A stretch of DNA of 63,155 bases, the filler included. It is 14 parts of 14 records of this genome, joined end to end, with 100 filler letters (N's around TTAATTAATTAA, not from the genome) between each part and the next. Parts side by side here need not be neighbours in the genome. Positions count along the whole stretch, not along the records: positions 60,107 to 63,155 come from SRR15195285_2029; 13 more parts are not named here. One strand, written 5' to 3'. Numbering within the stretch: the first letter of the stretch is position 1; every line of letters begins with the position of its first letter. Under the pieces are notes generated by a model. The model was not told where the DNA came from. It worked only from the letters and a program-made list of their open reading frames with translations, and did not search any database. Of this stretch, positions 10,893-63,155 are shown piece after piece. The position numbers were made by a program, and so were the translations under genes.

Positions 10893-13800
10893 TGATCCGA
10901 GGGCAAGCTGCCCGTAGGTGTTTTGCCCCCACGTCTGCACTGCGCTGCTTGGGAGTGCCACGCATGTGGTGCTCGCGTTGTCGTCGTGGTCGTAGTGGCC
11001 ACCCGGACAAGAACGTCCAATTTCCCATCCGATGTGTGCAGTTGATTTGCCGACCACATAACAAGAGCCAGGCGCATCGACCTCCGTGTCCCACCCACCA
11101 GGGAAGAACTCAACCCCATCGATGGTCACAGACCAGTTTTGGGAGTGATTTCCGTCCGATTGAACTACCACTGCAGATTCAATGTAGTCAGAACTGGAGT
11201 AAGTTACATCAACGCCTGGAAAAACCAGGGAGCTACCACTGGTAGCAGGGGTATAGTCCAACCACGGGGAGCACCACTTAAGGTCGCCATCTGTCCATCG
11301 GTACAAGTTGTCTGGACAGATGCCATTAAGGCAGTCTATGGGCGGCGGTGGTGGCAGCAACGTAGGCATAGGCGTGCCAGCGATGCTTGTTTCTTGCTCA
11401 GGATGCAACAGCAAATTGGATCCAGGTGGTACAGATCGTATTTCGGTGTAGGAGCTTCGGCCAAGATGTGCGTCAAGGCTTGGGCAAGCAGCATCTGCAG
11501 CCTCTGCGCTCCCCCAGGCGCGACCACCGTCTCTGCAGGAGTCACACGGGAAGCTGCCACACCCAGCGCCAGAGCTATATATAATATGCGAGTAAGATTG
11601 AAGTGCCCGCGCATCCGTGCATACGATATCTGAAAATCCATCTCCGTCGCAATCATAGTCCATGATTAGCTGAGCCCCTCCGTTCGATCCGTGGGAACAC
11701 CAGCTTGGAGAGGCACGTCTGCAACCCCACTGCATCGAGTCCTCAGGCACTTCGAGCGGCACTGAGGACTCGATCATTGTTGCGTTCATCCCAGCGAGCA
11801 AGTTTGTTCCGCCACACCATAATTCCAGCTCAGAGATCCTCCACACGACGTCCACGTTGTTAAAAAAGTTGAACGTGACAGAAATTAGTACCTCCTCAAT
11901 GCAAGGAGTGGCAGGATCTGCGTCGTGATCGACGTAGCCAGTTTCGCAGCTAGTGCAGCTCGTGGCCTGCACCGGGGAGAAGAAGCCCGGCTCGCACTGT
12001 GCGCATGCTGTGGATGGGTCGCTGTCAGTATCGGCGGTCCCAGAGATACACGAAACGCATGACAGCTGACCCGCTGGTGTGTACGTCCCTACACGACAGA
12101 GCTGACACGGTGTAGAAACATTAGAATCATGGTCGTATTGTCCAGCCGGACATCCACTCCACTCACACCCACTCAACACAAAGGTACCAGCCTGCACAGG
12201 TTCGACGATGAGTACAGCAGCAGAGGGCCCTGTGGCTCGAAATGGTGCGGCATACACCTTACCATCAACCCCTAGTGCACCTGCTGGCCACTTGTCGCTA
12301 CCGTCTATGCCAACGTCAAGCGTGCTGCTAGTCCCGGCAATGGTATCAATGGCGAGGACGCTTCCGCCATTCCACGGAAAAGAATAGACTGTCAAGTCAG
12401 AAGCAAGGACGGCTCCGGACCAACGAAACGATCCGCTACCTACAGGTATGCTTGATGTATCGATAGCACCTGTCGCAGTGTCTATGATGAGTACGGATGT
12501 TTTTGTTATCGGTATCCCATAAATTTTGTTGTTCGGTCCAATGCATCCTGTCCACCACTTGTCGGTTCCAGACCCGACGCTCATGCTTGTCACATCTGTA
12601 CTGCTGGCCGCCGGGTCTACGATTAGGACGCTGTGCGCGTTCGTGGGTATACCGTAAATTTTGCCGTCCGTACCCAGCACACCTCCCCACCACAGCTTAT
12701 GCGATCTCGACCCTGCGCCACCATGCCGCAAGCTCGTAATGTCCCAAGTAGTGGCAACGGGGTCAACAACAATTACAGCACCGTGCCTCTCCGGTATACC
12801 GTACAGCTTCCCGTTCGGCGCAAGCACGCCGTCGTTCCATTTGTCGCCACCGTCTATGCCGCTTAGACTGGTGGTATCAGTGGTTTGAGCGACCGTATCC
12901 ACGATCAAGATGGATGTAGAATGTCGTGGGAACCCATAAATCTTGCCGTTAGGCGCAAGAGCACCGTCCCACCACTTATGACCACCGCTCCCCAATCCCG
13001 CCATAGATGTCGTATCGGTCGTTCCAGCGACTGGGTCAATAATTAAAACCGCGTCCGCCAGATGAGGCATCCCATAAATTCTCCCATCTACTCCGTTTGC
13101 ACAGCCCCACCATCCGTGTGCCCACGATATATCGTCAGCAGGTTGCGACATACGTGTGGCGTCTGTGGTCACTTGAGTCGTCACCGGAAGAGGGCAAGTT
13201 ATTTGCGCAGTTCCACCATACGGAGCTACGCACGATATCGCCCCTAGTTCGGCAAGATCAGATGGGAAGTTTGGCAGTCCGAGGCCCGTGACCCCCGTTC
13301 CCCAATCTGATGCGACGCCCAGGCCGAGAGACAGAACGTTTTCAAAATCGTAACCCGTTGTGTTTTGCGGGAGTGAGCACTTGGCGTCGCATACATCTGC
13401 GTACTGCCCAGTTGAGCAATCCGAACGCTGGCTGAGTAGTAGCTGAATCGAGAGCGCAGAGTTGTCGCATGCCCAGTTACCAGCGTTTGAGAACATCCAG
13501 TCAACTGAGCCACCCAGCGACACCACACCCTCGAATGAGAGCTCGACAGGTGATTGGTCGTTGAAAGGTGTGTCTCTGAACTCGACATTTTGTGCAGCAC
13601 CATCCACAAACACTGCAAAGTTCACCGTGGTAGTGCAGGACAGCTTGCGAAACGTCCACACGACACGGATATGGGCAGCATTCTCGCCAGTATTCGTCCA
13701 TCGCACATCCAGCAGGTGGTTCACCTCAGAACTGTGACCTGGGTGTATCGCAACCTCGCCAGCCGCTGGCCCAGGCTCTGGATGCACCAGCTGCTGATCG

Positions 13801-14678
13801 CACAGGCCGGGGAAGTGACCAGTTGTACCAGGCGTGCGGAAGCAGTTGAATTGACTTTCGAACCCTTCGTGAGACGCTGGTCGGGCCATGACCTCAAGCG
13901 GAATTTCGCTTCTTAGGGTGCTCGTCGGGGCGATCCAATCGCTTGTAGCCAGGAAAGACCATTCGCCTTCCCCGGTGCAGTCAGCGAATGCTGTAACACC
14001 GATTGGCGGTGACGCCGCGTCGTAATCACTTCTCAAGGTGCAAGCAGTTGTCGTAGTGGACATGGCCAAGATCACTGCCGATATCCACATACGAGTAAGT
14101 GCAGCTCCACGACGACCTGCGTTGATCGTGAGTACGGCCGAAGCAGCGCTATGCGCACGGTACTTAGGTGCAAGGCTTCCGAGTGTTCCAATGGCTACCA
14201 CGTAAGGCAGCAGTATCTGGAACAGATAGATCGGCCAGTCCGTATTGTCTGTCACCGGTGTGTCCATATTGTCTGTCGAAACAAAGAGGCAACCGAGCGT
14301 GTCATCATTCGGTAGTTGACGTTCATCAGGCGTATCGATCTCATCCAAATGATAGTTGACTAAGATGATATCGTCCTCATCCTGCACACCTCCCGTGTTC
14401 TCTTCCTCGTAGTCTATTGCCACCGACTTCTCATCCAGGCAGTTGTCCGTCTTAACAGGATCCTGCGCATCGTTGAGATTGCATGCGTACTGAACATGGT
14501 CTTCCAGGTTGTTCTCCGCCCAGCATGTGGGCCGTGCATAGTAGGCAAGCAAGGACTTTGGCTTGACATGCCAGACAGCTGGATCCAACGCGTGAATCTG
14601 TCGTTTGCTCACCAGATCATGCATATCGTCGCCGTTGAAGCGGAGGTCTTTCTGCTCAGTGGTCTGCGAACATGCCAC
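10893..14678 (-). CDS. Large surface/secreted protein with beta-propeller repeats and ephrin-receptor-like (GCC2/GCC3) Cys repeats; 3' truncated
   Basis: About 7 repeats of KWxxGVLAPNGKIYGIP...VLIID (~12200-13150); CPAGQYDHDSNVSTPCQLCRVGTYT-type repeats (~11900-12160 and ~10960-11010). Likely signal-peptide start MWISAVILAM at 14090. Confidence 0.75.
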
Positions 14679-14888
14679 GCGCAGATGTTAGTCATCTCTC
14701 ACAACACAGGTGTGAGGGGGGGGCGGGGGGCGGGCGTCTGTGCAGTGCAGCGTGCCACGGATCAAATGAATGGGTCTGCTCCGGTAAAGCTAGAACCGAA
14801 AGCCTCATCTGCCTGTTGCTCACCGGATCATGCATATTGTTGTCCTTCAAGCAGAGGTCTTTCTGTTCAGTGGTCTGCGAACATGCCA
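14596..14888 (+). repeat. 82-bp imperfect direct repeat (14596-14677 and 14807-14888)
   Basis: Both copies read ATCTG..TTGCTCACC.GATCATGCATAT...GAGGTCTTTCTG.TCAGTGGTCTGCGAACATGCCA. Confidence 0.9.
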
Positions 14889-21585: not shown

Positions 21586-24500
21586 CGTTGTGGACAGCAC
21601 ACCCGCGCGAATATTCGTGCGGTACAGCGGGCACTGGTAGTCGCTTTCCGGTGGCGTGAAGTTCTCAGCCGGCAGGAAGTGAATGTACGGCAACGCCTCC
21701 TGCGGAATGCCCGGCTTGGAGGGCTGCAGCGTCATGGTCTCCTCCGACCATCGCGCCGCCTCTGCAATTCGCCCAGAACCGCACACCGAATTCGGCGCGG
21801 CAAGCTCAGAACAGTGGACAGCACAAGAGCGAGCCCATGGCCGGATGGCGTCGGGACAGCGGCGGAGGGCGCGAAGACGTTGACTCACCGATGAAGAGGC
21901 CTCTCACGTAGCAGCCATCCTCAGGCGGTCCGTCCACTAGGTCCTCGTCGCTCGTGAACTTCGTGACCACAAATGCGAAGTCAATGGCATCGATCTGTCA
22001 CAGCATAGCATCACACCCGAGTCAGACTACCATTCAACACTTGAAATCAAGAACGCTTGCTCATCGAAGATCGTGTCTCACCGGAATGAGGTGCTTCCGT
22101 GCGTGCTTCTGCAGCGCGCCCGTGAGGAAGCCCTGCGTGAAGAAAATGAAAGGGAGGCAGATCGAGGTTGGAACTCCATTCTTGTTCCAGCCGTGCATGA
22201 AATCCATTCGGGCCTGTTGCCACAAACAGACGAAAACAGAGCACACGTGAGCGAGGATGCACGCGGATGTGATATTCGCCTGGTGCGGTCCTCACCTCTA
22301 GGTCTCGGTACCAAGACGCAAGCGGCTTGAGGGAGGGATAGCCCGCTGTCATCCACAGCTCCGGTACCTTGTTGGATAGCAGCGCGTCAAACATCTGCAG
22401 GGACAACACCGACGGCGATGAGTCAGAGTACGCAAAGAAAAGTTAGGCTGTGTGCCACGGCACATAGCTGTGCTGTGATTTTGAACTATGTGCTCACAGC
22501 TTCAAGGTCTCCGCTCATCACGATCAACCCCTTAATTGCTTTGCGTAGCAGCCCTAACGAGCGTCTCAGCACAGCTAGCAATCCATTGAAGCGGTCCACC
22601 TCCTGCAGCAACACTGTCGCGAGAGAGTCCATCTGGCCTGTCTCCGGGTCACGATCAAACAGTCCCGGCGAGCACTCCTCCATATCGAGGTTGGCCGGCA
22701 TCCGCCCCTCCATGTCCGCCGCCATCGCGTCCACTAGCTGCTCAGGCGTCGCGGCTTCTTCGTCCGTCGACGTAACGCGCGGCTGGATCCCTAGAACGGT
22801 GTTGATTATACGGTCCGTCTCGGAGATGTTGTATGCGACCAGCGCATTATCGTGCATGCCGAAGACCTCCGGCTGCTCCTCCATCGGCAGGCCACGGATG
22901 TACGTCATCATATCCGCCAGCGTAATGCTCTCGTCTCCAGGCGCGTAGTAGTGCCCGGAATCCGAGTATTTGTAGGTCGCGTCGAGCACAGATGGTACGT
23001 AGTACTGCTCCAAAATTGTCATCAGGCAGCGCCGATCCTGATCGTCTGTGACACGGCCCCCGTAGTTGATCATGCCTGTCACATACACGAGGGACTCCCA
23101 AGGCACCTCGTCCTGTTCGTCGAGGAACATCTTCAGTGTCGATTTCGAGCAGTCGAGGTCAGATGCGTTGAACTCGTACTTGACGTTCCAACCGAGTGGT
23201 CCGAACTTGCGGCGCTCCTGGATCATGGCGTGGAAGAACGACAGCGAAAAAACCAGCTTCTTCCAGGGGCCCGGCTTCGAGCAGCTTTCGAAGTACTCCT
23301 CCTTCATCACACCTAGTGTGCCGATGAGATTCGCGCGAACACCCTTCGGTGGCTCATTTGTCAACTTGATGGATGACTGCAATGTGGCAACCGGAAAGGC
23401 TGCGGAAGGCATTGACATGAGCCAGAGCCGGAAGTCCTCGTGCACTGCTGGGACAGTGACGCCGATATCCTCTATCAATTTCTCCATCCTGGGCAGCCAA
23501 GATGTCGCGAGATGGCAATTCTGCAAGCAGACCCAGTCGCCGTCCTTCTTCGCCTTGTCTATTAGGGCCTCTGCCTTCGGCCCCTGCCCCTGGCCGAGCG
23601 AGATGATGTGCAGCTGCGAGACGTGCTTGTCTGGGTCTTGGTTGTCAGCGTAGTCCAGGAGCATGCCTGTCGGGTCGGCACCCACAGAGAGAATGAAGAT
23701 GACGGGCACAGTCGGGCTCGTATCCTTGAAAATATCAGCAAGCTTGAGAGGCGGCACCTCGACATAGCGCTCGTCTAACCTGTTTATCACGTACTCCGCG
23801 ATGCCAAGCGACAGCTTGTCCGGCTTGAGAACCTTGAGGAGCAGCAATTTCTGGAAGGGCGTGAGGAAACGAGGGTTCGGTACCTCTTCCACGTAGTCCT
23901 CGCTGCCAGGCTCTCCAGACGCCGGTGTGAGCGGCGTGGGGTCACCCCATTCGTTCGGCAGTGGTTCTTTGTGTGGTTCGAAGCTCGAAAACCAGGCTTT
24001 CCACTCGACCACGTTCGTGACAAAACTCTCCATGAAGCCTTCGAATGGGCCTTTTACTATGATCTCGAGCGCATTCAGCAGCTCCCAGTTGACTGGTGAG
24101 ATCCAGTCCGATCCAGGATTCTCCCCGACCGGGATCTGACCCGCCATTGCGCCAGCACCGCGCAATAAAAAATTCCACTCCGAGAACGGAATATCGCCCG
24201 CGTGCCGCATGATGGACGCGCAGATGAGGAACGAGTAGATCAGACGATGCTCGCCAAACAGACCTCGCGAAACAGTGAGGTAGACGAAATATGAAATGTA
24301 ATCGAGCAAGGTCTCCAGTCGTTCTTCAAGCACATCCGACTTGTCAGAGACCACGAGACAGTACTCAAACAGGGAAGAGAAGTAGCTAAGTGAGTACTGG
24401 TACATGGGGTCCAAGCGCCCGAGGTCGGAAATTACGAAGTAGATCAGCGATCCGCGCGTAGCGACGGTACGATAGCTCTCGCGCGTGAAATTGATCTCCT

Positions 24501-26056
24501 TTTCCGTCTGCTGTGCCTCTTGAACACGGGTCTTGATAACACCAGAGGTGAGCTTGGAGTTGTTGAGCGTATTGATTAGCGGCTCGTTGTCGAGCACGTT
24601 TCCTTCGGACGTAGCGAGCAGGTGCAGTGTCTTATCTTCAAGCTCCTTCAGCTGCTTAGCATCCTTCGCCATCGACACCACCAGTTTTGACTTGGCCTGC
24701 TCAAGGTCGGGGCGTTCCTTGCCAACCACTGCGCCGAGCAGCTGATCCTCGAGACCGGACATGGTAACCGTGAAGTTGATAAGTGTCACCTTGATGCAGA
24801 GCTCCGGCATGTAGTGTGGGTTAGGCAGCTTCGAAGTCATGTAGAAACGGAAATTTTCGTCGTAATCCACATCAGTTTCGCCCAGCCGCAAAATTGAGCG
24901 GCCTCCCTGCTTGACCACCGCTTTTAAGAGCACCGGCTCCAGCGCTGGATCTACATCCTCGCCAAGGTCCTCACATAGCACTGGGCAACCAATCCGGATG
25001 GCGCCCTCCAGCACGCGCAGGAAATTGGGGTCTGACAGCTTGATAAGCTTGATTCCAGCCTGCTGCTCCATATTCTTGATCCAGTTGTTAGCCTGCTGCT
25101 GCGGGTCGATCATCAGCGGCCAACGCTTGGCACGTGTCACGAGAATGCCATTCTCTGTGGACAGTGCATCCATAGGCAAGCCCTCAAGCTGCCACTGCCG
25201 TATGTCCACATCGTTACCCATGATGCCAGGTAGCGAGAATACATCGGAGCATGGGATGCTCTTCTCTACGCAAGCATCACGCCAGATCGTGGTCACCTTC
25301 TCGCGGTAGACCGAGTCAAAAGCTCCGAAGTATGACACACACGAGGCTGACAAAAATACATCGCCCACAAGCAGTGTAATCTGATTCTTGTATACCTCGA
25401 CCGTCTCAGTCCAGCGCACCTTTTCATCGCCTAGCGCGCCAGTCAATATTCCTGCGCGCTGCAAACGATCCTCCGTCAGCTTGGCCTCGGCCTGCAGTCG
25501 CTCCGACTCATCCTGTGCCTCCTTGAGCTGCGCCTGCAGCGCCTCTACCTTGGCAGTTACCTCCGCAAGCGTTGCCTCCTTCTCTGCAAGAGCATCCATC
25601 ACAACCTTGAGCTTAGCCTCGGCCTCGGCCTTCGCTTGCTTCTTCGGCTCAACAGTCTTCGCCACACTGTGGTAAGTATCCATAGCTAACACCCACATGC
25701 AGAGCGACTTCGCAGCCTTGGAGACGCGGCCAACAGAGTCGGGGGTGAAGTCCTCGTTGGTCGCGTACTTCTGTAGCTTCTTGATCTTTGACTCGGCGAT
25801 GTTATCCTTGTCAAACTCGAACAAGCTGGGTAGGAATTTCACATCACCCATCATCTTCTTGGCGCTGTCCCAGTCAGTCTTCTCGCCCTTCAAGATGCAG
25901 ACCGCCTCGAGAGTGGTTTGCACCAGCGGCGGAGGCTTGGCGAATGACTTAATCTCCGTAATATCATTCTTGTTCAGCGCACTCAGCGCGGATACAGCTG
26001 CGTCTAGAGCTGGCAGCGCCTTGTCCAGGTCTGCCTGTGCATCGTCGGCGATGACC
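21586..26056 (-). CDS. Axonemal dynein heavy chain, C-terminal half (stalk/MTBD, AAA5, AAA6, C-domain); inner-arm type, truncated at both ends
   Basis: RWPLMIDPQQQANNWIK, INFTVTMSGLEDQLL, ISLGQGQG, WVCLQNCHLA, ERRKFGPLGWN, NYGGRVTD, YPSLKPLASW, YQCPLYRT...GVLSTT; several introns in 21586-22495. Confidence 0.97.
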
Positions 26057-29262: not shown

Positions 29263-32200
29263 TGTCTTGATGGTGATTGATGGCGAGGTTCTGTCTGCTC
29301 ACGTTGCCGAAGCATTTGTGCGCTGTGTTGCAATCGGCTTTTGCGAGCTTCCGTGATTCGGCTCGAGTCAGTGCCACCAGCTGCTGCAGGCTGTTGCTTC
29401 TGGTGTGACTGGAACTCTCGCAACTCCCTGTCCCCCAGTTCTCGCTGCCTTAGCACCTCATCCTTTCTCCTTTCTGCCAACTCCTCCTTCTCTCGCTGAA
29501 AGTCCTCCATTTTCCTACGCAGCTGCTGTGCCTTCCCATCTGTAGAGCCCGCCGGCAGAAGCTCAATGCCTTTCTCAACCAGCTCCAACGCCTCCTCAAT
29601 ATCGCCGCCCTCGAACGCAGCAACTGCTTCTTCGTACTTGCGTCCAGCCGTATGTACCGGCAATGGCCGCTGCTGTCCAGATCTTCGGGGCACACCATGT
29701 GCTCCTTCTTCCACACGTGTCCTGTGTCCTGCTTCGGTGTCGCTAAAGGACACCTGCAGGTCTCGTCTATGCTGGCGATCGCCTGTAGAATTGCGTGACA
29801 CGCTCTCACGTGTTTGCGGCTCTTCTCGTGACCCTGCGTTCCTTGACGAGCTAGGCGAGGCTGCGCGGGTAGACGGCGATTTCTTGCTGGTACCTGGACG
29901 ATGAAGAGCGCGTCGCGATGTACGTATTCGCTGTTGGAGTTCTTCTTGCAGCCGCTTGCTCTCGCCTCCCCAAGGCTGACCCAGCTGCTGTAGCGCGTGC
30001 TTGAGCGTGTCGTCTGCTCTTGCATGGTCGTGAATTTTCTGCCAACGGATGGCATCATCAAGCAAGTCCTGCGTGCTGCGGATGATCTGCTTCTGATAGT
30101 TGGATTTCGGCGGCACTTTGAAGTTGTGGCCCGTTGGCGAGGTCGATAAATCGTGCTTGCTAATAGCTGTTGAAAACTGTCGCCGCGGGGATGCCTGTCT
30201 CGCGCGCCCATCGCCAGTGGCATCTCGTTCAGGACTAGCACTGGCACGACCACGCGCTCCTCCACGGCGTCTTCTTGTTTGGGCCCTGCGCAAGAGTCGC
30301 TCCGTGGAGTCCAGCATCTCTCGGGCCGTCTTCAGCCGCATTTCGCGTTCGGACATTTGTCCAGTGTCGGTCGCTCCTGACGCTTCTGTCGCCGAAGTTA
30401 AACCTCTTCGGGTAGTGGCCAGCGGATGCGCCACTGTCGCCTTCAGACCTGTTCGGCTTGGTGCCAATGCATGCTGCGTTACCGAGGGGTTCCATTTTGC
30501 CTCTCCTCCCCGCCCCGGCGAGGCATACACGCGGCCACGGCCAGGGCGCGACTCAGCAGCAACAGCGTCCCACGACTTGCTGCTAAGCTTCTCCTGCATC
30601 ATCTGACATTCCAAGCATGCAGCACGAACGTCCAGCAGTAGCTGGTGCTGCTCCTGCTGCAGCTTCGTCATCTCTTGCTGAAAAGTAGCTATCGCTTTGC
30701 GCAGTTTCAAAACCTTCCTATCTGCAGAGCCCTCGAACGCCGGCGGCATATTGTCTTCTGATGCCTCAATCAGCTCCAGTGCCCGATGATCATCGCCACG
30801 ATTGAACGCCTCTACAGCAGCTGTGTAACTCCGCTCAGCCAAATCTACCGCTTGCGGCTGCCGGGCTCCGGCTCTTTGCCGCCGCATTTCCGTTGGATCA
30901 GCCGTCTCATAGAGGGCGGCCACCTGTCTCATGTGTTTCCGCCACCCAGCATACACCTCCCGTGTGCGCGTAATCGTGCCCTCTGGGCTCTTCAGAACGT
31001 CATCCAGGAGGTCATCCAGCTCCTTCTTGCGATCTTTCTGCCGCTTACTCTTCAGAGATACCTGCGATGGGCTCGCCGCTTTCGACGCTCCAGCTTGCTG
31101 CAGCAGCGTGTGGCTGCACGCCTGGCGCTTCCTCTGCAGCAGAGCCGTCATGTCTGCACACTGCTTGTCGTCGGCGTGCACTTCCTCAAGGATCTTCAGG
31201 GCAGCGTCGTACCGTCGCAGCGCTTGCGCAAAGTTTCGCTGGCGCTCTAGGACTAGCCCTTCTTCCTTGTTTAGCTCTGCTCGCGCATACGCGTCTTGGA
31301 TCTGTCGTCGCCTCGTTGAACCGCGGCGCGGCGAGCCAGCTGTAACTCGTTGCGGGCTGAATCTGGTGAGAGCTCGAGCGCCTTGTGGCGAGCGTGCTCG
31401 GGGCGAAGGCAATCGACCACCTGTTTTCGTAACGGGATCTTTCGAAAAGCGACCAGCCGCCTGCCAGTCGTACTCCCAGTCGCGCTGCCGCGCGCTACGT
31501 GCCTGCAGCTCGTCAGATAAATATCTTCGGGGCACCGCCTTCAATTTCGCTTGGATCAAATCAGTCAACTCTTGGCTCGCGTGGTCCCAGGGCAGACCCA
31601 GCAGGTGCAGTGCACTCTCTAGCAGTGTCATGGCGCGCTCAGACTCCAGTGGGACTGGGTTGCAAAGACACACCATGGCTTCGTCGTACTTACGCTGTGC
31701 CTTCGCCAGGCTGACCCGCCTGAGCGCAGGCTCAGGCTCAGGTCGCCACGAGGATGCTGCTGGTGGAGCGGCGGCAACTGTCTGGCGCTGCTCAAACGGC
31801 GGCGATTCTTCCGCGCGGTGCCAAAACGGGGATGTGTCTGAGAGCTCCGCTTCTGACAGCTCGGGATCCCGGAAGCCGTTGGGCTCTGGCGCAGCTGCGC
31901 GCTCCCGATGCACGGTCGAGCTCGAGCCGTCCGACAGGTGCGCTACGGAAAGCTCTGGGTCCTGCTGCTCGAGCGCCAGGCGCGCGCCACTTGCTAGCGT
32001 CAGTGTGAGCAAGTCGATGAGATACCGCTTCGGGCTCGCCATGTCATCGACCGCGGCGAGCGTCTCCTCGTTCACGTACCGCATCTCCCTGGCGCGAGCT
32101 TTGAGCGCCTCGACGCTGAGGCTTCCCAGCTCGCCACGATGCGTGGAGGCCGTCGATCCCTTCTCCGACTCGCTGTGCTCGGCCAGCGTCCATTCCTCAT

Positions 32201-32450
32201 CGCTGGAGGACGTCAGAGGGAAACGTGCTTGCCGTCTCCGCTCTGGAGAATTCCTCCAGCTCCGGCTGTGATGCGCCTCAACCTCCGGCTCCGGCTCCGG
32301 CTCCGGCTCGTGACCCAGCCACCACCGCTCGTCGTCCTCGTGCAGCGCGCTGTGCTCCATCCCCCCTTGTCCGTGCCTTCCCAAGGCCGCCGCCGATCTA
32401 GACACCTGTTGGTCCCTACTGTCACTTCCCGGGCCTCTGTGGCGTCGCAT
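29263..32450 (-). CDS. Large low-complexity protein with dispersed TPR/MIT-like helical modules; 3' truncated
   Basis: ORF of more than 1000 codons; modules such as RKYEEAVAAFEGGDIEEALELVEKG and RSYTAAVEAFNRGDDHRALELIE. Start is 32450 or 32360. Confidence 0.65.
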
Positions 32451-32621
32451 CGCTGCAGTCAATCTCCCACTCACTCCGAAATCGCACCGTGTGAGCGAGT
32501 ACGAGCGACGTCATACACAGTGTACACGGGACGGATCGACTGGCGCTGCCGAACAAGACGCGAGGAAGGCAGCGATCTAAGCGCAAGGCTGCAGCCGAGG
32601 GACCACCACCACGACCAGAGG

Positions 32622-37504: not shown

Positions 37505-40500
37505 TTAGCTTGTTTGCTCCTGCAGGGCCTTTTCTATTGCTGCGTGCGCCTTTCTGCCCAGTTCTGCGAGCACAACCGCTTTCTCTTGCTGCGTCATGAC
37601 GCCAGAAGAGGAAGACCCGTTGGATAGGCTGCCTGCCATCGCGGCGATTTGTGCTTCTAGTCCAGCAGTCATGCTTTCGATTATGCCGTGCGCGGCACTG
37701 CCAGGATCAAGCGATGACGTCGCCCCGTCTCCACTTGATGCCAGCGTCATGGGCATGGTAGTTGATCGTATCCGCTGCTGCGGTGGTGTGAACGGAACCG
37801 CGCTACATCCGCCGCCGTCAGCGGAGTCGAGCGACGCCCCGAGCAGCGAGGCCATGCTGCCGCGGAGGCCAGCGCCGCTCCCGACTGGCGACTTCACCTT
37901 CTCCTTGTGATTGAGGTAAAACGTCGTGGAGGGTCGTAGTGGCACCGGGGTGCCATAGATTTCAATGGCGTGACAAGACTGGTAGCCATCGATAAAAGGC
38001 AGCTCGCTGGGCTCGCATTGCTGCAATTGGTGCCTGCTGTAGACCGGAAAGTCGTCCACCGCCATCGTGGGGAAGTGCTTCTCGTTCCTGTACATCCGAA
38101 CTTTCCACGACATCGTCATAGTCGCCTCCAGACTAGCCACCTCATCCGGCCTGTCGGGGTCCTCAGGCAAGTCAAAGTTCTCTCGCTCCACCTCCATGAC
38201 TATACCATACTCCTCAAAGCTAGCTCGAATATCATCCTCAGTCGCAAACAGCGGCGGTCGAATTCCTGTGAACTGCACTAGCTCCCCCTGGTTCTCGCGC
38301 ACGACCGGGATGATAATGTCCTCCTGGACACCTACGCAGTCCTCGTCGTCCTTGGAGATGTAGGTGAAGCCAAACTCCAGCAAATGGTTGAGCTGAGCCT
38401 CGCTCCTCACTCCAACCAACCAGTCCGAGGGCGGGAACCGCGGCTCAACAGAATGGAGCGTGGCCTGATCAGGCGGCGTCTCCATCTGAGCGAAGTCAAG
38501 GTCGTATATCTTACGGATCCGGTTGAGCATTCGGTGCACATGGTCGGGATTAGTGATGTCGATGTCCTGTGCGATCTCACGCAGCCACGCTGGCTCAGGG
38601 CGGCCATTGATCAGTTTGCCCTCGGGTGCACCCTGCAGCTCCTCAAACCACTCCGCCACGCGAATGCGGGCTACAGCCGCAAATGGCATGTTGTCCATCT
38701 GCGTGGACTGGTTATAGCGGGTGGAGATGATTTCCACGATGTAACCTGTGATCGCTTCCATCAGCAGGAAGACCACCAGCAGCAAGTACGTGACGACGTA
38801 TACATAGGTCCAGCTGCCCGCAGGACCTTTGGTCGTGACGTCCATCATAGAATTCAAGTCGTCCTGAAGCATCACGTTGAAGCACAAGGTCCGTGCGGCA
38901 TCGCCGAGCGAGCCCCACATCGAGATCAGCGCTTCCACACACTCCTCGTCACACTTTGAGCTGTCGATCGCGTCGCGGTCCGTCTGGATAGACGGGTCGA
39001 TCTTGAAGGTCATCACACCTATGATCGCAAAGGCGTACGTGCCGACAAAGACGAGCACAAAGATCCAGAGCACACCGGAGAATGCTTTGAGGAGCGAGGA
39101 CGTCAGGGAGCGAAGCTTCTTCACGCGCGTCACAATACGGGCGATGCGCAGGATGCGCAGGATCGAGGCGATGTGGCGGAGTGTCTCGAGCCACCCATGG
39201 TCTGCCAGTCCCGGTTGCCCAAGGATGGAGTAGGCCGCGATAAAGTAAGTCGCCTGCACTGTCATCGACATCGCCACGACGGTAAACTCGAAGATCACTA
39301 CCAGCAGGTACTCCGAGTGGAGGAAGTTGTAAGGGATCTTCTGCTGCTGGTGGTCCTCGGCATTGCGATTATCCTCGTACTCTTTCCGCAGCTGCGCGTT
39401 CTTGAAGTTGGCGGCGGAGACCGTGCGAAACCAAGGCCACTCCGCCGAGCGGCAGTTCTTGCGAAACGCCTCGAGGCCCATCTTGCGGTAGCGGCGGTTG
39501 TAGTTGCGCAGGGTGTACGCGAACATGTTGCGCATTCCCCAGTACTTGAGCAAGAGCCGCCCGAGCAGCTCGACGAAGAAGATCAGCAGCACCAGGAAAT
39601 CGACGCACAGTGTCGTCGTGTAGATCACCTTGGCCGTGTCCGCCCACGAGCACGGCGTCTCGCCGCTCAGGCTGCCGCTCGTCCGCCAGGAGTCATCCTG
39701 CTCGATGCACGGCCGGATGTACTCCTCGCGCACGATGTCCACCAGAAGCGAGAACAGGATGAGCGCCGAGATCCAGCCGTCCACCGTCTCGAGCGGCGTG
39801 AAGTTCATCGAGCAGAGGCGCACCTCTGTGCCGCTCGCGCCCACAGCCACGCGGCCTAGCGCCTTCTTATAATCGAGCATGGTGTAGCTGACCGACAGGT
39901 CCAGCTTGCGCGAGACCCCGCCCGGGGCGCCGGGGCTGAGCCACTCGCCGCACTCGAACTCCCAGACGTGCCCCGTGCACGGGTCCTCGACGGTGACGTT
40001 GTCCACGTGCCAGGCGGACTCCTGGCTCTCGCCGTCGTGGCGGATCGAGACGGCCTCGATCTTGCCGCCCAGCTCGCCGATGTTGACCTTGGTGGGGAAC
40101 TTGCCCACGTGGCCCGGGCCGAAGTCGTGGATGCTGTGGCGCGGCAGCAGCATCTCGTCGCTCTTGCCCTCGGCGCCGTAGAGAGTGCACCAGACCCGGG
40201 CGTCCGTCCCGGGCGCCGGCGTCCGCGGCGACTCCGCGCTGGTGCGGACCGTCACGACGAGCGAGCCGCGCTTCGTGACGCCCTGCCCCTGCCCAAGGCT
40301 GCTCATGTCGCGCGACGACGCCCAGGCGCTCGCCTGCTGCCGCGTCAGGCTCGCGGACGTGCGCGGCGAGCCGAGCGAGTTGCGGAGCTCCGTGCCGGCG
40401 CCGAAGTCGCGGCGCCGCTCTCGCGGCGGCGTGCCCACCGGGCTGCGCCCGCCGTCGAGCATCTGCGGTAGCTCGGGCTTGTTCGCGCCGAGCGGCGAGA

Positions 40501-40630
40501 GCAGCGCGTTGGGGCGGCGCTTCTTCGTGACGCCCTCGGCCCCCACCGAGGCCGCGCTAGCGTCGATGAGGTTGCTGCGCTCCGCCAGCGGGCTGCCCGG
40601 CGCTCCCGGCAGCGCTGCGCCCGAGCCCAT
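37505..40630 (-). CDS. PLAT/LH2 domain + single-domain 6TM voltage-gated cation channel
   Basis: PLAT: GTDARVWCTLYG..G...IRHDG...WHVDNVTVED...WEFECGEWLS. S4: ILRILRIARIVTRVKKLR. S5: YAFAIIGVMTF. Pore: WGSLGDAARTLCFNVMLQDDL. S6: YVVTYLLLVVFLLMEAITGYIVE. Confidence 0.85.
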   Translation of the reverse strand: MGSGAALPGAPGSPLAERSNLIDASAASVGAEGVTKKRRPNALLSPLGANKPELPQMLDGGRSPVGTPPRERRRDFGAGTELRNSLGSPRTSASLTRQQASAWASSRDMSSLGQGQGVTKRGSLVVTVRTSAESPRTPAPGTDARVWCTLYGAEGKSDEMLLPRHSIHDFGPGHVGKFPTKVNIGELGGKIEAVSIRHDGESQESAWHVDNVTVEDPCTGHVWEFECGEWLSPGAPGGVSRKLDLSVSYTMLDYKKALGRVAVGASGTEVRLCSMNFTPLETVDGWISALILFSLLVDIVREEYIRPCIEQDDSWRTSGSLSGETPCSWADTAKVIYTTTLCVDFLVLLIFFVELLGRLLLKYWGMRNMFAYTLRNYNRRYRKMGLEAFRKNCRSAEWPWFRTVSAANFKNAQLRKEYEDNRNAEDHQQQKIPYNFLHSEYLLVVIFEFTVVAMSMTVQATYFIAAYSILGQPGLADHGWLETLRHIASILRILRIARIVTRVKKLRSLTSSLLKAFSGVLWIFVLVFVGTYAFAIIGVMTFKIDPSIQTDRDAIDSSKCDEECVEALISMWGSLGDAARTLCFNVMLQDDLNSMMDVTTKGPAGSWTYVYVVTYLLLVVFLLMEAITGYIVEIISTRYNQSTQMDNMPFAAVARIRVAEWFEELQGAPEGKLINGRPEPAWLREIAQDIDITNPDHVHRMLNRIRKIYDLDFAQMETPPDQATLHSVEPRFPPSDWLVGVRSEAQLNHLLEFGFTYISKDDEDCVGVQEDIIIPVVRENQGELVQFTGIRPPLFATEDDIRASFEEYGIVMEVERENFDLPEDPDRPDEVASLEATMTMSWKVRMYRNEKHFPTMAVDDFPVYSRHQLQQCEPSELPFIDGYQSCHAIEIYGTPVPLRPSTTFYLNHKEKVKSPVGSGAGLRGSMASLLGASLDSADGGGCSAVPFTPPQQRIRSTTMPMTLASSGDGATSSLDPGSAAHGIIESMTAGLEAQIAAMAGSLSNGSSSSGVMTQQEKAVVLAELGRKAHAAIEKALQEQTS

Positions 40631-41379
40631 CGTAAAAGATCGCTCCCCGGGTGGCTGGCTGGGCGGCTGGGTAGCTGCAAGCTGCTGCGGGTGCGCCGCT
40701 CCGCTGGTCGACTGCCGCCGCCGCCGCCGTTGAGCAGCGCCTCTCCCTTTGGTGGGTGGCTAGGCCTAGAGCTAGCTAGCTGGGGACTGTGTGCACCTGC
40801 TCGTCCCGCGCCTCCGCAGAGCTGCTGCCCGTGCCGTCTGCTGTCGACCGTCTGGTATCGGCAATGGGCGCAGAGGTTATCACTGCCGTGGAGGCAGCGA
40901 TCAGCCCTCCCTCCTCCTCCTGGTGCCGCCGCTCTCTCTCTCTCTCTCTCTCTCTATGGGGATCAATAATAGAGTGTCGGTCCGCCCCGCCGTGGCCGTG
41001 CTCGAGCAGCCCAGCCCCCCTACTGTAGTGTAGCGTGTGCAGAGAGTGTGTGTGCACAGCGTTAGCCGCCGCACGCTTGCAATTGCAATTGGTGCCGCGC
41101 TGTGCTGTGCTGTGCTGTCGATTCTTGATTGTTGATTTGTGATTATACTTTATTAATATAGCGCTGTGATACATGATCATGTGCATTTTTTAATCAATGC
41201 AGCGCCCGTTCTCGAATCAGGGGTTCGGAGGGNNNNNNNNNNNNNNNNNNNNNNNNNNNNNNNNNNNNNNNNNNNNTTAATTAATTAANNNNNNNNNNNN
41301 NNNNNNNNNNNNNNNNNNNNNNNNNNNNNNNNTTAAATACACTCCGGCGCTTGTATATTCATGGTACCTCCTGCTGCGC

Positions 41380-60006: not shown

Positions 60007-60108
60007 NNNNNNNNNNNNNNNNNNNNNNNNNNNNNNNNNNNNNNNNNNNNTTAATTAATTAANNNNNNNNNNNNNNNNNNNNNNNNNNNNNNNNNNNNNN
60101 NNNNNNGG

Positions 60109-62377
60109 CTCAAGCAGGGCGCCCCGCTCTCGCGCAAGGCCTTGGAGGAGAGCGAGCCCACCGCGGCGGCCCGAGCGTTGCTCGAGAAGAGTGGCTTGGT
60201 GCTCTTCGACAAGGCCACAAGCGAGGTCAGCGGCGCTTACCCGCTCACCACCGAGGAGCGTGCGCATCGTGTCGTGGCGGGCAAACGCCAGCTACGCGCC
60301 ATGTGCGCGATCGACGCGCTCGCGATTGGTCCGATGCTGGGCGACGAGCCCGTCACGGTGCACTCGCGTTGCGAGGTCACTGGCGACGAGGTGAAGGTGG
60401 AGCTAAGGGGTCCTGCGTTACAGGGCGAGTCGTTACGCTCCCAAGTCCAGGTCGGTGTCGGATGGAACGCGGCCAAGGAAGGAGTGAGCTGCGCCAGCAG
60501 CCTGTGTACACAGATGGTGTTTCTCAGGGATGTCGAGACCGCAGAGCAGTGGCAGAGCGATCCGGCCGGGTCATTGCCCTCACCCACTGGCCCTACGGCC
60601 GTGACGGACCCTCCATTGCCGACGCGAGAGTACTTTTCGCTTGGCGACGCCCTGAAGCTCGCAGCGCAATTCTTTCGCCCGCTGGGAGCGCGAGAGCCAC
60701 CAAACGGCGACGTTGGCCCGATGAAAACTGCAGAGCCGCAGAGCAAGCCCGGCACCCTCGTGATTGTAGATCCAGCGACAGCCGAGGAGACAGAATTTTT
60801 ACTGCTCAAGGGTCGCCCTGCGCAAGAGTACTTCGGGAAGCTCGATGTCGTCACGCATGGACTAGACGTACGTTGCCCGAACTGCCCTGTGCTGCTTCAT
60901 CTTGCCCAACACAACTGACACCTTGTGCCACGAATCTTGCACAGCTCCTTGAATCCGAGGACGAATATGTGGACGAAGAGCTGCTGCTCGATGGAACGTG
61001 GGGTAACTTCGATGGCGTGCCAAACCCCGAGTACTTGAAAAAGAAGACTGTAGGTGCAGAGACAGTCGAAAAACACGAGGGCGGGCAGGCAGCTGCGGAC
61101 ACTGCAAGCGGCGACACTGCAGGTGGCGATGACAAGCATGTCGCCGCAGACAGTGACGATAAAACTGAGGATGAGGGAACGGAAGAAAAGCAGCTCGAAA
61201 GACTGCACTTTTTCCGCTCCAAGGTGCACGTCAAGGACGTGAACCGGCTTGTTGTAGCGTCGTTCGTCTCCAGGTACCTTTGGAGCCCCAGACTGCTGAT
61301 TGCCATATCGTGGTTCCCCAGCGGCATTTTTTGTGCTCTTGCAGGCACTGCTACTCTTTCTGACTTCTGCTGTGCGCATCACACGCATTCGTGCGTGTGC
61401 GCGTGATGTGCTGCAGCTTGCGAGCGCCGAAGAAGAAGCCCAAAACATCAAAGCAGGCGGAAAATGCGGTGCGAGGAGGAAATTTCTTTGACACATTCCT
61501 GCCAAAGCAGAAAAAACGAACCCTGGCAAGCGTGGCGAACGGGCAAAGCTTGAAGTCCGCAGCTGCCACAGCCACAGCAAGGAACGCAAGTGACCGTGTT
61601 TCTCGTGGAAAGGTATTGGAAGCGTGGCTGGTCGACACACCAAATACGGTAGGTCCTTTGTGGCAAGGCTGAGATCTCTTCTCTACAGCTCTGCGGACAG
61701 CTGCCACCGTATGATGTCCAACTTTCTCCCGCTTTTTCTGTCTGCCTGTTTACGCAAGCTGCGGTCGTGTGTGACAGATGCGGCACTGGAGTGACCAGTC
61801 GCTGCGTAAGCGCAAGGCGGACGCCGAAAGGCCTGCAAGCAACGATAGGAGAACGATCCCTGCACCGATGGATTGGGTCGATGGCCTGGCGGCGCTTAAA
61901 GGTTCGCCGCGCGGGCTAGCAACCACAGCGACGTTGGAATCGGGTAAACTTGACGTCGTCCCACCCTCAGGAGCGGGCGCTGGTGCCGACACGGTGCAAA
62001 ACCTGCAGCTGCCGGGCGGCTTAGGCCTGTCCTTGAAGCAGGTGTCCCACACTGTAAAACCCTCACCGCGAACAGCGGCAGCGGACGCACTTCTCACCTC
62101 GCCCAGAGAGATTCCGTCGCCGATGGTGCTTCCATCACCTGCGACAATGGCGCCGTTGCAAGCGGCAAAGCGCTCGATGGGGGACGAGGGGGAAGCAGGG
62201 CTTGGCGGGATCGACTTGACAGATGTAGATACTACACCCGGCTGGCCGCAGCCACCAAGCCCGCACGGCGCCGACAATGCATTGCAATCGGCTGTCGTGG
62301 AGATGCCAAGCGAACCACATTCGATCATGGGTTGGCTCGAGGCACTCCCTGCACATTTGGCAGCCGGGGGCGCGTGA
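60109..62377 (+). CDS. merB: Organomercurial (alkylmercury) lyase MerB-like domain with spliced C-terminal extension; 5' truncated
   Basis: GAYPLT...HRV...AMCAIDAL...VHSRCEVTGDEV...SLCTQMVFLRD...AEQW...FSLGDA is the MerB pattern. Intron 60868-60944 (GTACGT, ACTGAC, CAG). Exons after ~61220 are uncertain. Confidence 0.8.
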
Positions 62378-63155
62378 TGAGCGAGGGACCATCAATGAAG
62401 ACGAATAGTGCGGCACGTGGCCATTACAATGCGCTGTGAAACTTTCCTTGGCGTCTGAATTAAGCCGTCTATAGCTCACCATCGTGCTCGCTAGTTGCTT
62501 TCTTTCGTACCCTTCCTTTTCTTGCGCCCCTTCTTCTTCGGCGCTAGCTATTCTTAGAGTCCGTATTCTTAGAGTCCGTATGAGCCCCTCCCCCGACCGG
62601 CGCGCGCCCATGCAGCCAGCCGCCGAGGAGGTCGGGGGGACGCGGACGCGGACTCGCGTTCGCGAATCGGAACAATTGTACCGCGCACCGAAGATCACAG
62701 TCATGCTGCAGCGACTCGAGGTTAGAACATAGCATAGAGGGTCAGAGGGGTGGCACTGATTCCTCGATGATTTCGCAGTAGGATTATGGATCTCCTTACA
62801 TAGGTCAAATAGCATATTCGATAGGTGTAGGTAGGTAATTCCAGAAAATTAGTGAGTCTAAACCTTGCAAGGTCTGACAATACACGGCAGTGTAAAACGT
62901 ACACTATATTTGTAATGCGCACCCCGTGCGTATGCAGTCTCCGATCGCCACCATCGACAGCCTGTCTCGCTGTCTGTCTTTTGTTAGCCATGGAGGTTCG
63001 CGCATCACCAGCACGTGCTCTTGGGTCGTGGTGCTCACTCCACTCGGTGCGCAACGCAGCGAGAAACTCCACAACATGTCGCATTGCTGTAGACGGTTGT
63101 GTCAGCGCTTCTTTCAAACACAGCACCACTTGGCCACGGTACCACGAATCGGTTA

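Follow-up and report, generated by a model that had tools for sequence, protein, structure and literature searches.

A MerB-family domain of probable bacterial origin in an intron-bearing gene of a marine eukaryote

The active site of the organomercurial lyase MerB combines two mercury-binding cysteines, a proton-donating aspartate and a buried structural cysteine. Christakis et al. (2021) defined a MerB signature of four residues, the catalytic Cys96, Asp99 and Cys159 together with Cys117, in a census of mer genes that took in bacterial, archaeal and plasmid genomes only (PMC8261052). Functional, bacterially acquired MerB homologues are known from fungi: MMD of Metarhizium robertsii (MAA_09685) demethylates methylmercury (MeHg) both in purified form and within the fungus, and its homologues elsewhere among the fungi go back to two transfers (PMC9704736). 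In cyanidiophycean red algae, merA is present and merB absent (PMC9812998), and a 2021 review treats MeHg degradation by phytoplankton as an open question and the pathways of plankton-associated demethylation as unclear (PMC10114901). We found no paper on a MerB homologue in Picozoa, dinoflagellates or other protists, although supplementary tables on horizontal gene transfer could mention one. Here, we describe a MerB-like gene on the last of 14 short contigs (3–6 kb) that, with N/TTAATTAATTAA spacers between them, make up a 63,155-nt stretch of DNA (the window). The locus adds to the fungal cases a protist gene with introns and a long tail. On balance, we think it probable that this is a nuclear gene of a marine eukaryote in which a MerB-fold domain of bacterial origin has come to carry introns and a fused C-terminal region, and that a MerB-type reaction is the most likely activity of the domain.

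The contig that carries the gene (60107–63155; 3,049 bases; GC content 0.58) begins inside a reading frame that stays open from 60109 through 60867 and encodes 253 residues (LKQGAPLSRKAL...GAYP...MCAID...SRCEVTG...SLCTQMVF). These are 100% identical to residues 49–301 of a homologue, P0003, which supplies 48 N-terminal residues absent from the contig; the frame is thus open from the contig start, as the initial annotation had it, but the start of the gene itself lies off the contig. A Pfam scan of this first exon returned a single family, MerB (PF03243; E value, 8.2e-22), with 78 bits where the gathering score is 27, a match far beyond chance that bears out the family assignment first made from the sequence alone. 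The same profile gives 77.3 bits for P0003 and 73.8 bits for P0013, a 47%-identical homologue. A sequence search of the PDB matched five distinct MerB or MerB2 sequences, with E values from 1.1e-7 to 1.2e-6.

To place the signature residues, we aligned the protein locally with the MerB encoded in the mer operon of an E. coli IncC plasmid (L002; 47 identities over 152 aligned residues); the PDB alignment is in the same register. All four residues of the published signature (PMC8261052) are present and in register, at the positions that the initial annotation had given them (Table 1). The equivalents of Cys96, Asp99 and Cys117 are invariant in all 11 family members and in alignments of 27 and 43 rows that include bacterial relatives, and so is the equivalent of Cys159. 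The last of these closes a C-A-S-S-L-C motif of which both cysteines (C176 and C181 in P0003) are invariant across the 11 members; the majority consensus of the bacterial relatives at this site is CAxSLC.

Structure prediction agrees with the profile match. An AlphaFold model of P0003, built from the 27-row alignment, has a pTM of 0.75 and a mean pLDDT by ten-residue block of 82–98 over residues 11–200, 67–72 over 201–220 and 96–97 over 221–240. A Foldseek search of the PDB with this model found 11 chains at E ≤ 0.001, all of them MerB or MerB2 (target-normalised TM 0.62–0.79), and the next match has an E value of 0.8. The model of P0013 gives the same result. The domain belongs to the MerB family, and its Cys/Asp/Cys set is intact.

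Table 1 Features of the MerB-like gene and of other contigs in the window (positions along the whole window).
Feature	Position	Strand	Description and basis
Exon 1	60109..60867	+	5′ end cut by contig start; MerB-fold domain, linker, ETEFLLLKGRPAQEYFGKLD..HG.D motif
MerB-fold domain	60109..60699	+	Residues 49-245 of P0003; PF03243 match, AlphaFold model
Cys96 equivalent	60304..60306	+	L002 and PDB alignments
Asp99 equivalent	60313..60315	+	L002 and PDB alignments
Cys117 equivalent	60370..60372	+	L002 and PDB alignments
C-A-S-S-L-C	60490..60507	+	Last Cys (60505), Cys159 equivalent; first Cys (60490), extra, four residues upstream
Intron 1	60868..60944	+	77 nt, phase 0, GTACGT...CACAG; then LLESEDEYVDEELLLDGTWGNFDG
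Branch-like CTGAC of intron 1	60915-60919	+	26 nt upstream of acceptor
Exon 2	60945..61273	+	Acidic; conserved islands LLESEDEYVDEELLLDGTWGNFDGVPN and LHFFRSKVHVKDVNRLVVASF; translation, homology to P0013
Intron 2 (tentative)	61274..61416	+	143 nt, phase 2, GTACCT...CTGCAG, CTGAC at 61360; inferred
Exon 3	61417..61648	+	Basic (KKKPK), ends ...LEAWLVDTPNT; open frame, P0196 homology
Intron 3	61649..61777	+	129 nt, phase 0, GTAGGT...GACAG
Exon 4	61778..62377	+	TGA stop included; Pro/Ser/Ala-rich, 7 S/T-P sites; open reading frame, 8 homologues
Dynein heavy chain motor region	22489-26055	-	Long open frame, Pfam
PLAT and ion-transport (polycystin-like) protein	37508-40759	-	Long open frame, Pfam
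Roc-COR protein	50509-54576	-	Long open frame, Pfam

Beyond family and signature, the protein departs from the enzymes of plasmid mer operons (R831b-type; PDB 3F0O, 3F0P and 1S6L; IncC copy in L002). It shares with them the Pfam family, the fold and, in register, Cys96, Asp99, Cys117 and Cys159, but it has a Thr (60508 in the L002 alignment) in place of Cys160, an extra Cys upstream and a Pro-rich insert of ~22 residues ahead of the last helix; its gene lies outside a mer operon and apparently has introns and a tail of ~440 amino acids. SaoL, from the SAO (selenocysteine-assisted organometallic) system, is another MerB-fold protein and a putative organometallic lyase used beyond mercury resistance; according to the preprint that describes it, SaoL differs in having a Cys-Sec motif, in being confined to anaerobes and in its identity to MerB of <15% (10.1101/2022.07.06.499078). 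The window protein scores 45.7 bits with the SaoL model (NF040728; cut-off 140), and its site reads Cys-Thr rather than Cys-Sec.

This distance counts against the explanation we favour. Identity to plasmid MerB is just 27–31%, and a tblastn search of 72,556 plasmids returned 464 matching records, all below 60% identity, with the annotated merB genes at 27%. The NCBIfam MerB equivalog models NF033555 and NF009710 give 53.8 bits (cut-off 200) and 54.3 bits (cut-off 193), respectively; the query was the exon of the window without its 48 N-terminal residues, a gap that cannot explain a shortfall of ~140 bits. A further point on the same side is that MerA, MerR, MerT and MerP have no match at E ≤ 0.01 anywhere in the 63-kb window, which extends to the other contigs the absence of merA, merR and mer transporters first noted for the 3-kb contig. 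Linkage to a mer operon is, however, not expected in a eukaryote. Judged by its sequence, the protein is not a canonical plasmid-type MerB, which qualifies the identity initially proposed.

The frame of exon 1 is interrupted after a conserved ETEFLLLKGRPAQEYFGKLD..HG.D motif that follows the MerB-fold domain and a linker; read without splicing, it meets an in-frame stop at codon 60916–60918. Removal of the GT..AG interval here (intron 1) restores a frame that is conserved elsewhere, and two comparisons support the intron. One is with a metagenome contig, L001, of 81% protein identity, the sole related locus to come from a scan of JGI metagenomes (139 pattern matches). Exon 1 is 85.4% identical to L001 at the nucleotide level, with 28/19/64 mismatches at the three codon positions, and exon 2 is 82.6% identical, with 8/12/28 mismatches and gaps that sum to a multiple of three. 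The interval between them is 75% identical, with mismatches spread evenly (7/6/6), differs in length (77 nt and 90 nt) through four indels of 1, 8, 2 and 2 nt, and contains an in-frame TAA in L001; what is kept there are the GTA(C/A)GT and CACAG ends and a branch-like motif, CAACTGACA. Nei–Gojobori omega in the same comparison is 0.20 over exon 1 as a whole (MerB domain, 0.165; linker, 0.27) and 0.17 over exon 2, and the MerB domain and exon 2 are under purifying selection.

The second comparison is with P0013 (414 amino acids; 37 cluster members), which runs uninterrupted across the junction (HGTD/MLESEDEYVDEQYLANGTWGSFEGVPN...LHWFSTRVHAKAVQRLVVASFAS; HGTD/MLESEDEYVDE, where the slash marks the junction) and so has the domain and exon 2 in one open reading frame (ORF). 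Exon 2 of the window is 40% identical to its residues 303–405 (E value, 8e-23). Nine of the 11 fetched homologues (P0003–P0013) extend past ...HG.D into tails unrelated to one another, which is what a gene caller yields on reading into an intron, and P0012 ends at the boundary. These comparisons bear out the 77-nt, phase-0 intron that the initial annotation placed at 60868–60944.

RNA reads lend it no support. We compared contigs from three RNA libraries (X14–X16) and one DNA run (X1) with the locus and looked for the spliced joint 60867/60945 that the initial annotation had anticipated. None of the contigs from the three RNA libraries contains a splice joint; one from X14 (60778–61026) crosses intron 1 unspliced, two from X15 (60721–60871 and 60874–61078) also enter it, and the contigs from X15, X16 and X14 that begin at 61716, 61722 and 61744 start within intron 3, all of which speaks against splicing. 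Such contigs are few, with a word depth of 3–17, and several are exactly one read long; DNA carry-over is possible. RNA-library cover is absent over 61127–61636 and 62453–62758 and there is none over intron 2, making the libraries uninformative there. The protein could on this evidence retain the intron and end at the read-through stop (...HGLDVRCPNCPVLLHLAQHN*), with exon 2 no part of it, and the nine homologues called in just this form would fit. We consider this very unlikely: read-through tails are unrelated between close homologues, exon 2 is conserved in another frame with the third-position bias and low omega given above, two homologues (P0005 and P0189) read that same exon 2 out of frame, P0013 joins it to the domain, and the shallow RNA contigs may derive from DNA or pre-mRNA. 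The unspliced contigs are weak evidence against splicing, outweighed by the comparative evidence, which favours a spliced intron 1.

Several observations place the gene in a eukaryote, as the initial annotation had proposed. The source name of P0003 is COSAG02_NODE_5455, from the EukProt COSAG02 assembly set; in that set, a cluster-mate with 88% identity is labelled EP01043_Picozoa_sp_COSAG02. Pfam assigns eukaryotic proteins to other contigs of the window (Table 1); four further long frames (10893–14687, 29265–32510, 6324–8087 and 47809–49797) match no Pfam family. Together with the intron comparison, the Picozoa label and these proteins support a eukaryotic origin. Bacterial contamination of a eukaryotic bin, or a chimeric assembly in it, might be suspected from the short length of the contig (only 3 kb) and the typically bacterial occurrence of MerB, but it would leave unexplained the interrupted reading frame with conserved GT..AG ends and the recurrence of the same arrangement in the independent contig L001. 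Moreover, the nearest labelled bacteria share 30–38% identity, compared with 62–100% for intron-bearing relatives, and a 3576-nt contig assembled from DNA run X1 covers 60107–62507. We regard contamination as extremely improbable and treat the gene as eukaryotic.

A word-based search of proteins gave 20 matches at E ≤ 0.001, 11 of them with 47–100% identity. Among 23 listed sequencing runs, 19 contain near-identical DNA for part of the stretch; they represent 14 studies, the label being marine or seawater in nearly every case, and include ten runs with at least half of the sampled words and six RNA libraries. A second copy from the EukProt set (P0189; COSAG02_NODE_906), 88% identical to P0003 and on a different contig, could be a paralogue or come from a second strain in the co-assembly.

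To trace the origin of the domain, we searched 1.84 billion representative sequences with P0003 using phmmer, which gave 402 matches at E ≤ 0.001, 139 at ≤1e-10 and four at ≤1e-30; the best beyond the protein's own family are proteins of ~215 amino acids with 31–41% identity. Scanning a single genome for each prokaryotic species confirmed 194 relatives from 212 pattern matches. The best 80 of these, mostly from metagenome-assembled genomes (MAGs), belong mainly to Gammaproteobacteria (with many sulfur oxidisers), Burkholderiales, Chloroflexota and Desulfobacterota. These ~215-amino-acid proteins are the nearest prokaryotic relatives, with 30–38% identity across the whole domain, and share the motifs GAYP(F/L)T, AMCA(L/I)DAL, CAxSLC and FFxPL; they differ from the window protein in being stand-alone and intron-free, and none has the tail.

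Phylogenetic analysis supports the derivation of the domain from this bacterial clade. A FastTree phylogeny of 123 rows comprised eight eukaryote-type rows (P0003, P0005, P0006, P0009, P0010, P0013, P0023 and the dinoflagellate Polarella glacialis, P0186), those representatives among P0026 and P0028–P0071 that have 190–260 amino acids, those among P0120–P0171 that have 200–270 (P0072–P0119 being omitted), every other locus from the bacterial set of 80, the loci L051, L056 and L064, and three plasmid references. The eukaryote rows group as a single clade (support 97), which lies within a larger one of 61 rows (support 98); an IQ-TREE quick tree of 65 rows hand-picked from the 123 likewise places them together (SH-aLRT 99) within a clade of 40 rows (support 98), although both trees are rooted on one very long outgroup branch, their unlabelled rows could include eukaryotes, and fungal MMD is not among the rows. 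The larger clades of both trees include labelled Chloroflexota, Gammaproteobacteria and Desulfobacterota, and plasmid MerB, Bacillus MerB3 and a Bradyrhizobium mer-operon protein fall outside them on long branches. The sequence comparisons and trees thus support the acquisition from bacteria suggested at the outset, and point to a clade of ~215-amino-acid MerB-like proteins mostly outside mer operons as the source.

In both trees, the sister of the window family is the Polarella protein, annotated 'Alkylmercury lyase' (UniRef A0A813EGV7) and 46% identical. This dinoflagellate represents a second protist lineage with the same acquired gene; its protein is 230 amino acids long, has no C-terminal extension and carries an automatic annotation only.

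We searched the flanks of the 80 bacterial loci (up to 6 kb per side, some contigs being shorter) with MerR, MerT, MerP and MerA from L002 and L004. A mer operon of the form merR-merT-(merP)-merA is present at two of them (L051 and L064), and three more have only a disulfide-reductase-like match of 27–34% identity. At seven loci, all Desulfobacterota-like, the MerB-like gene directly precedes genes for an ArsP_1 permease, an NMT1-like binding protein and ABC transporter subunits. Antisense shadow ORFs aside, the conserved neighbours comprise only generic families and a single Desulfobacterota-specific block. For most of the nearest bacterial relatives the surroundings say little; the contexts that are informative concern mercury or organometals.

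The seven SAO-like loci are L056 (6991–12202, Desulfopila aestuarii), L008, L039, L043, L046, L053 and L072. In each, the NMT1-like protein has a TAT signal and is followed by an ABC permease and an ABC ATPase, an arrangement that matches the SAO operon of the preprint, which reports an 'apparently authentic MerB' amid the genes of the D. aestuarii operon (10.1101/2022.07.06.499078).

It is very probable that the gene extends far past 61223, where the initial annotation had ended it. Past VVASF(V/A)S, at the position of the tentative intron 2, the read-through tails of the window and P0013 are unrelated. Further downstream, the ORF at 61778–62377 has eight homologues at E ≤ 0.001, with conserved stretches RHWSDQSLRKRK, PSPRTAA..LLTSPR, LPSPATMAPLQAA and SIMGWLEALP. 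Distant relatives of the downstream exons from the European Nucleotide Archive (ENA; P0198 and P0199) run uninterrupted over junction 3 (...AWIVDAPGA/MRHWSDQSLRKR...), at which the window reads ...LEAWLVDTPNT, GTAGGT...GACAG and then MRHWSDQSLRKRK. Another relative, P0196, reads PKKTKK...NIFDAML...LEAWIVDDPKTV, homologous to exon 3, then 24 unrelated residues and RHWNDSSLRKRRR. Because these proteins carry homologous sequence on both sides of junction 3, exons 3 and 4 form one coding unit. The four exons total 1920 nt in a single open frame, or 639 residues, and with the 48 missing residues would give a protein of about 687 amino acids; the gene thus probably extends through two further introns to 62377.

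P0198 and P0199 also have an extra read-through insert between LLTSPR and SPFVLPSP, which suggests an additional intron in their lineage.

The link between exons 2 and 3 is inferred from the frame, which removal of the GT..AG interval 61274–61416 joins, and this counts against the model. An alternative is that the MerB gene ends soon past exon 2 and that 61406–62377 is a separate two-exon gene. An in-frame ATG at 61406 just 5′ of KKKPK would serve as its start, P0196 too starts with M shortly ahead of PKKTKK, 61079–61715 is without RNA-library contig cover, and no homologue spans the exon 2/exon 3 junction. Arrayed against two genes are the overlap of the exon 2 read-through stop (61404–61406) with that ATG, which leaves no space for untranslated regions or a promoter, and the single frame that a GT..AG intron keeps open through all four exons. 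In the 47%-identical lineage, moreover, contigs of 7420 and 2309 nt occur in both the P0013 and the P0196 clusters, and on the shorter one ORFs of 1245 and 861 nt would nearly abut; this is indirect evidence that the two ORFs adjoin in that lineage too. Two separate genes are a minority possibility to be taken seriously; that exons 1–2 and 3–4 form one gene is, on present sequence comparisons, reasonably likely.

In the single-gene model, the C-terminal extension is not the one acidic exon of the initial annotation, but probably ~440 amino acids over three exons; its lack of a known family does stand. Exon 2 has 27 Asp and Glu among 109 residues and exon 3 has 16 Lys and Arg among 77; basic patches read KKKPK and RKRKAD, and short islands are kept between lineages. 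Pfam finds nothing for exons 2 and 4 and just a sub-threshold DUF7750 match for exon 3 (13 bits, cut-off 27); the tail of P0013 gives a sub-threshold CWB2 match only. With residues 262–414 of P0013, ESM Atlas yielded no usable match and a word-based search returned P0013 alone among 923 candidates of 227–725 amino acids. In the AlphaFold model of P0013, residues 261–414 have pLDDT <50, except residue 330; the tail is thus predicted to be disordered where modelled, namely over the exon 2 part of P0013, although the very shallow alignment of three near-identical rows weakens this prediction and is a further caution. Because of its short conserved motifs, basic patches and S/T-P sites, the tail is more probably involved in localisation, regulation or the binding of partners than in catalysis.

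What the domain does can be approached through its site. Because the four signature residues are kept and the domain is under purifying selection, a MerB reaction seems the most likely activity. In the mechanism we propose, an ancestor would have acquired the MerB-fold domain, the first ~245 residues, from the ~215-amino-acid bacterial clade rather than from a plasmid mer operon; the gene would later have gained spliceosomal introns and become joined to a long C-terminal region, largely of low complexity, for a total of about 687 amino acids over four exons. An organometal, most plausibly MeHg or another organomercurial, would be held by two thiolates; the Asp would protonate the carbon and the hydrocarbon would be released, with Hg(II) left bound to the cysteines, to be passed to cellular thiols or a reductase. 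Fungal MMD, a eukaryotic MerB homologue of bacterial origin that is active, is a precedent for working transfers; it differs in acting with a MerA-like reductase, MIR, and the available text of that study describes no long tail (PMC9704736).

Some observations weigh against a lyase. Of the 80 nearest bacterial loci, 71 have neither mer genes nor SAO-like neighbours within about 6 kb, although some of these are short contigs, so that most of the clade is without a mercury-linked context. A MerB without MerA is expected to be harmful, and the 2021 census remarks that organisms with MerB alone had no reported activity (PMC8261052). The fold might instead have been repurposed as a thiol-based metal-binding, metal-sensing or other module heading a long regulatory, possibly nuclear protein. 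The fusion to ~440 low-complexity residues with basic patches and seven S/T-P sites is unlike any stand-alone detoxification enzyme, mer partners are missing from the window and mer genes from 78 of the 80 nearest bacterial loci, Cys160 is replaced and a CX4C arrangement is present, and MerB-family sites are reported in the preprint to accommodate other metals (10.1101/2022.07.06.499078). Mere binding, however, would not need the proton donor Asp, which is invariant along with the other three signature residues; the Polarella relative is a stand-alone protein; and the domain has the omega of 0.165. We therefore rate repurposing as rather unlikely, though it is the main rival. MerB-like chemistry on an organometal is the mechanism with the best support; whether this extends to true C–Hg lyase activity is close to an even call, tipped slightly towards no.

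A broader scenario can be sketched, which as a whole is speculative and improbable. Picozoa-labelled picoeukaryotes and at least one dinoflagellate would share a bacterially derived, active lyase, and with it a route of their own for MeHg breakdown in oxic surface water; in the picoeukaryote form, a long, phosphorylatable and possibly nuclear tail without bacterial counterpart would localise or regulate the demethylase or the captured Hg(II). The conserved catalytic residues, purifying selection and occurrence in 19 of the 23 listed runs make the gene a concrete candidate for cloning and assay. If the protein is active, surveys that count prokaryotic merB alone miss a eukaryotic MeHg sink at the base of the marine food web; if it is inactive, it offers a clean case of a long eukaryotic protein that has recruited a metal-handling fold from bacteria.

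Two relatives show other domain arrangements. In the P0120 cluster (705 amino acids; one member is named FAD-dependent oxidoreductase, Simkania sp.), from a chlamydial MAG, a MerB-like domain at residues 522–680 is fused behind an FAD-dependent oxidoreductase, and may represent a MerA-like/MerB fusion. In P0027 (413 amino acids; JGI metagenome), which groups among Desulfobacterota rows in both trees, the MerB-like domain follows an unrelated N-terminal region of ~190 amino acids and a Cys-rich linker (CCGG).

Rfam and tRNA scans gave no match in the whole window, including the 3′ end of the contig (62782–63021), which also has no second copy in the window. This segment reaches a word depth of 45–420 in the RNA libraries and the DNA run, compared with ~4 for the gene, and shows loose ends to either side, at 62934 and 62967. 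A dispersed repeat is a probable explanation, or else sequence in common with an organism of far greater abundance.

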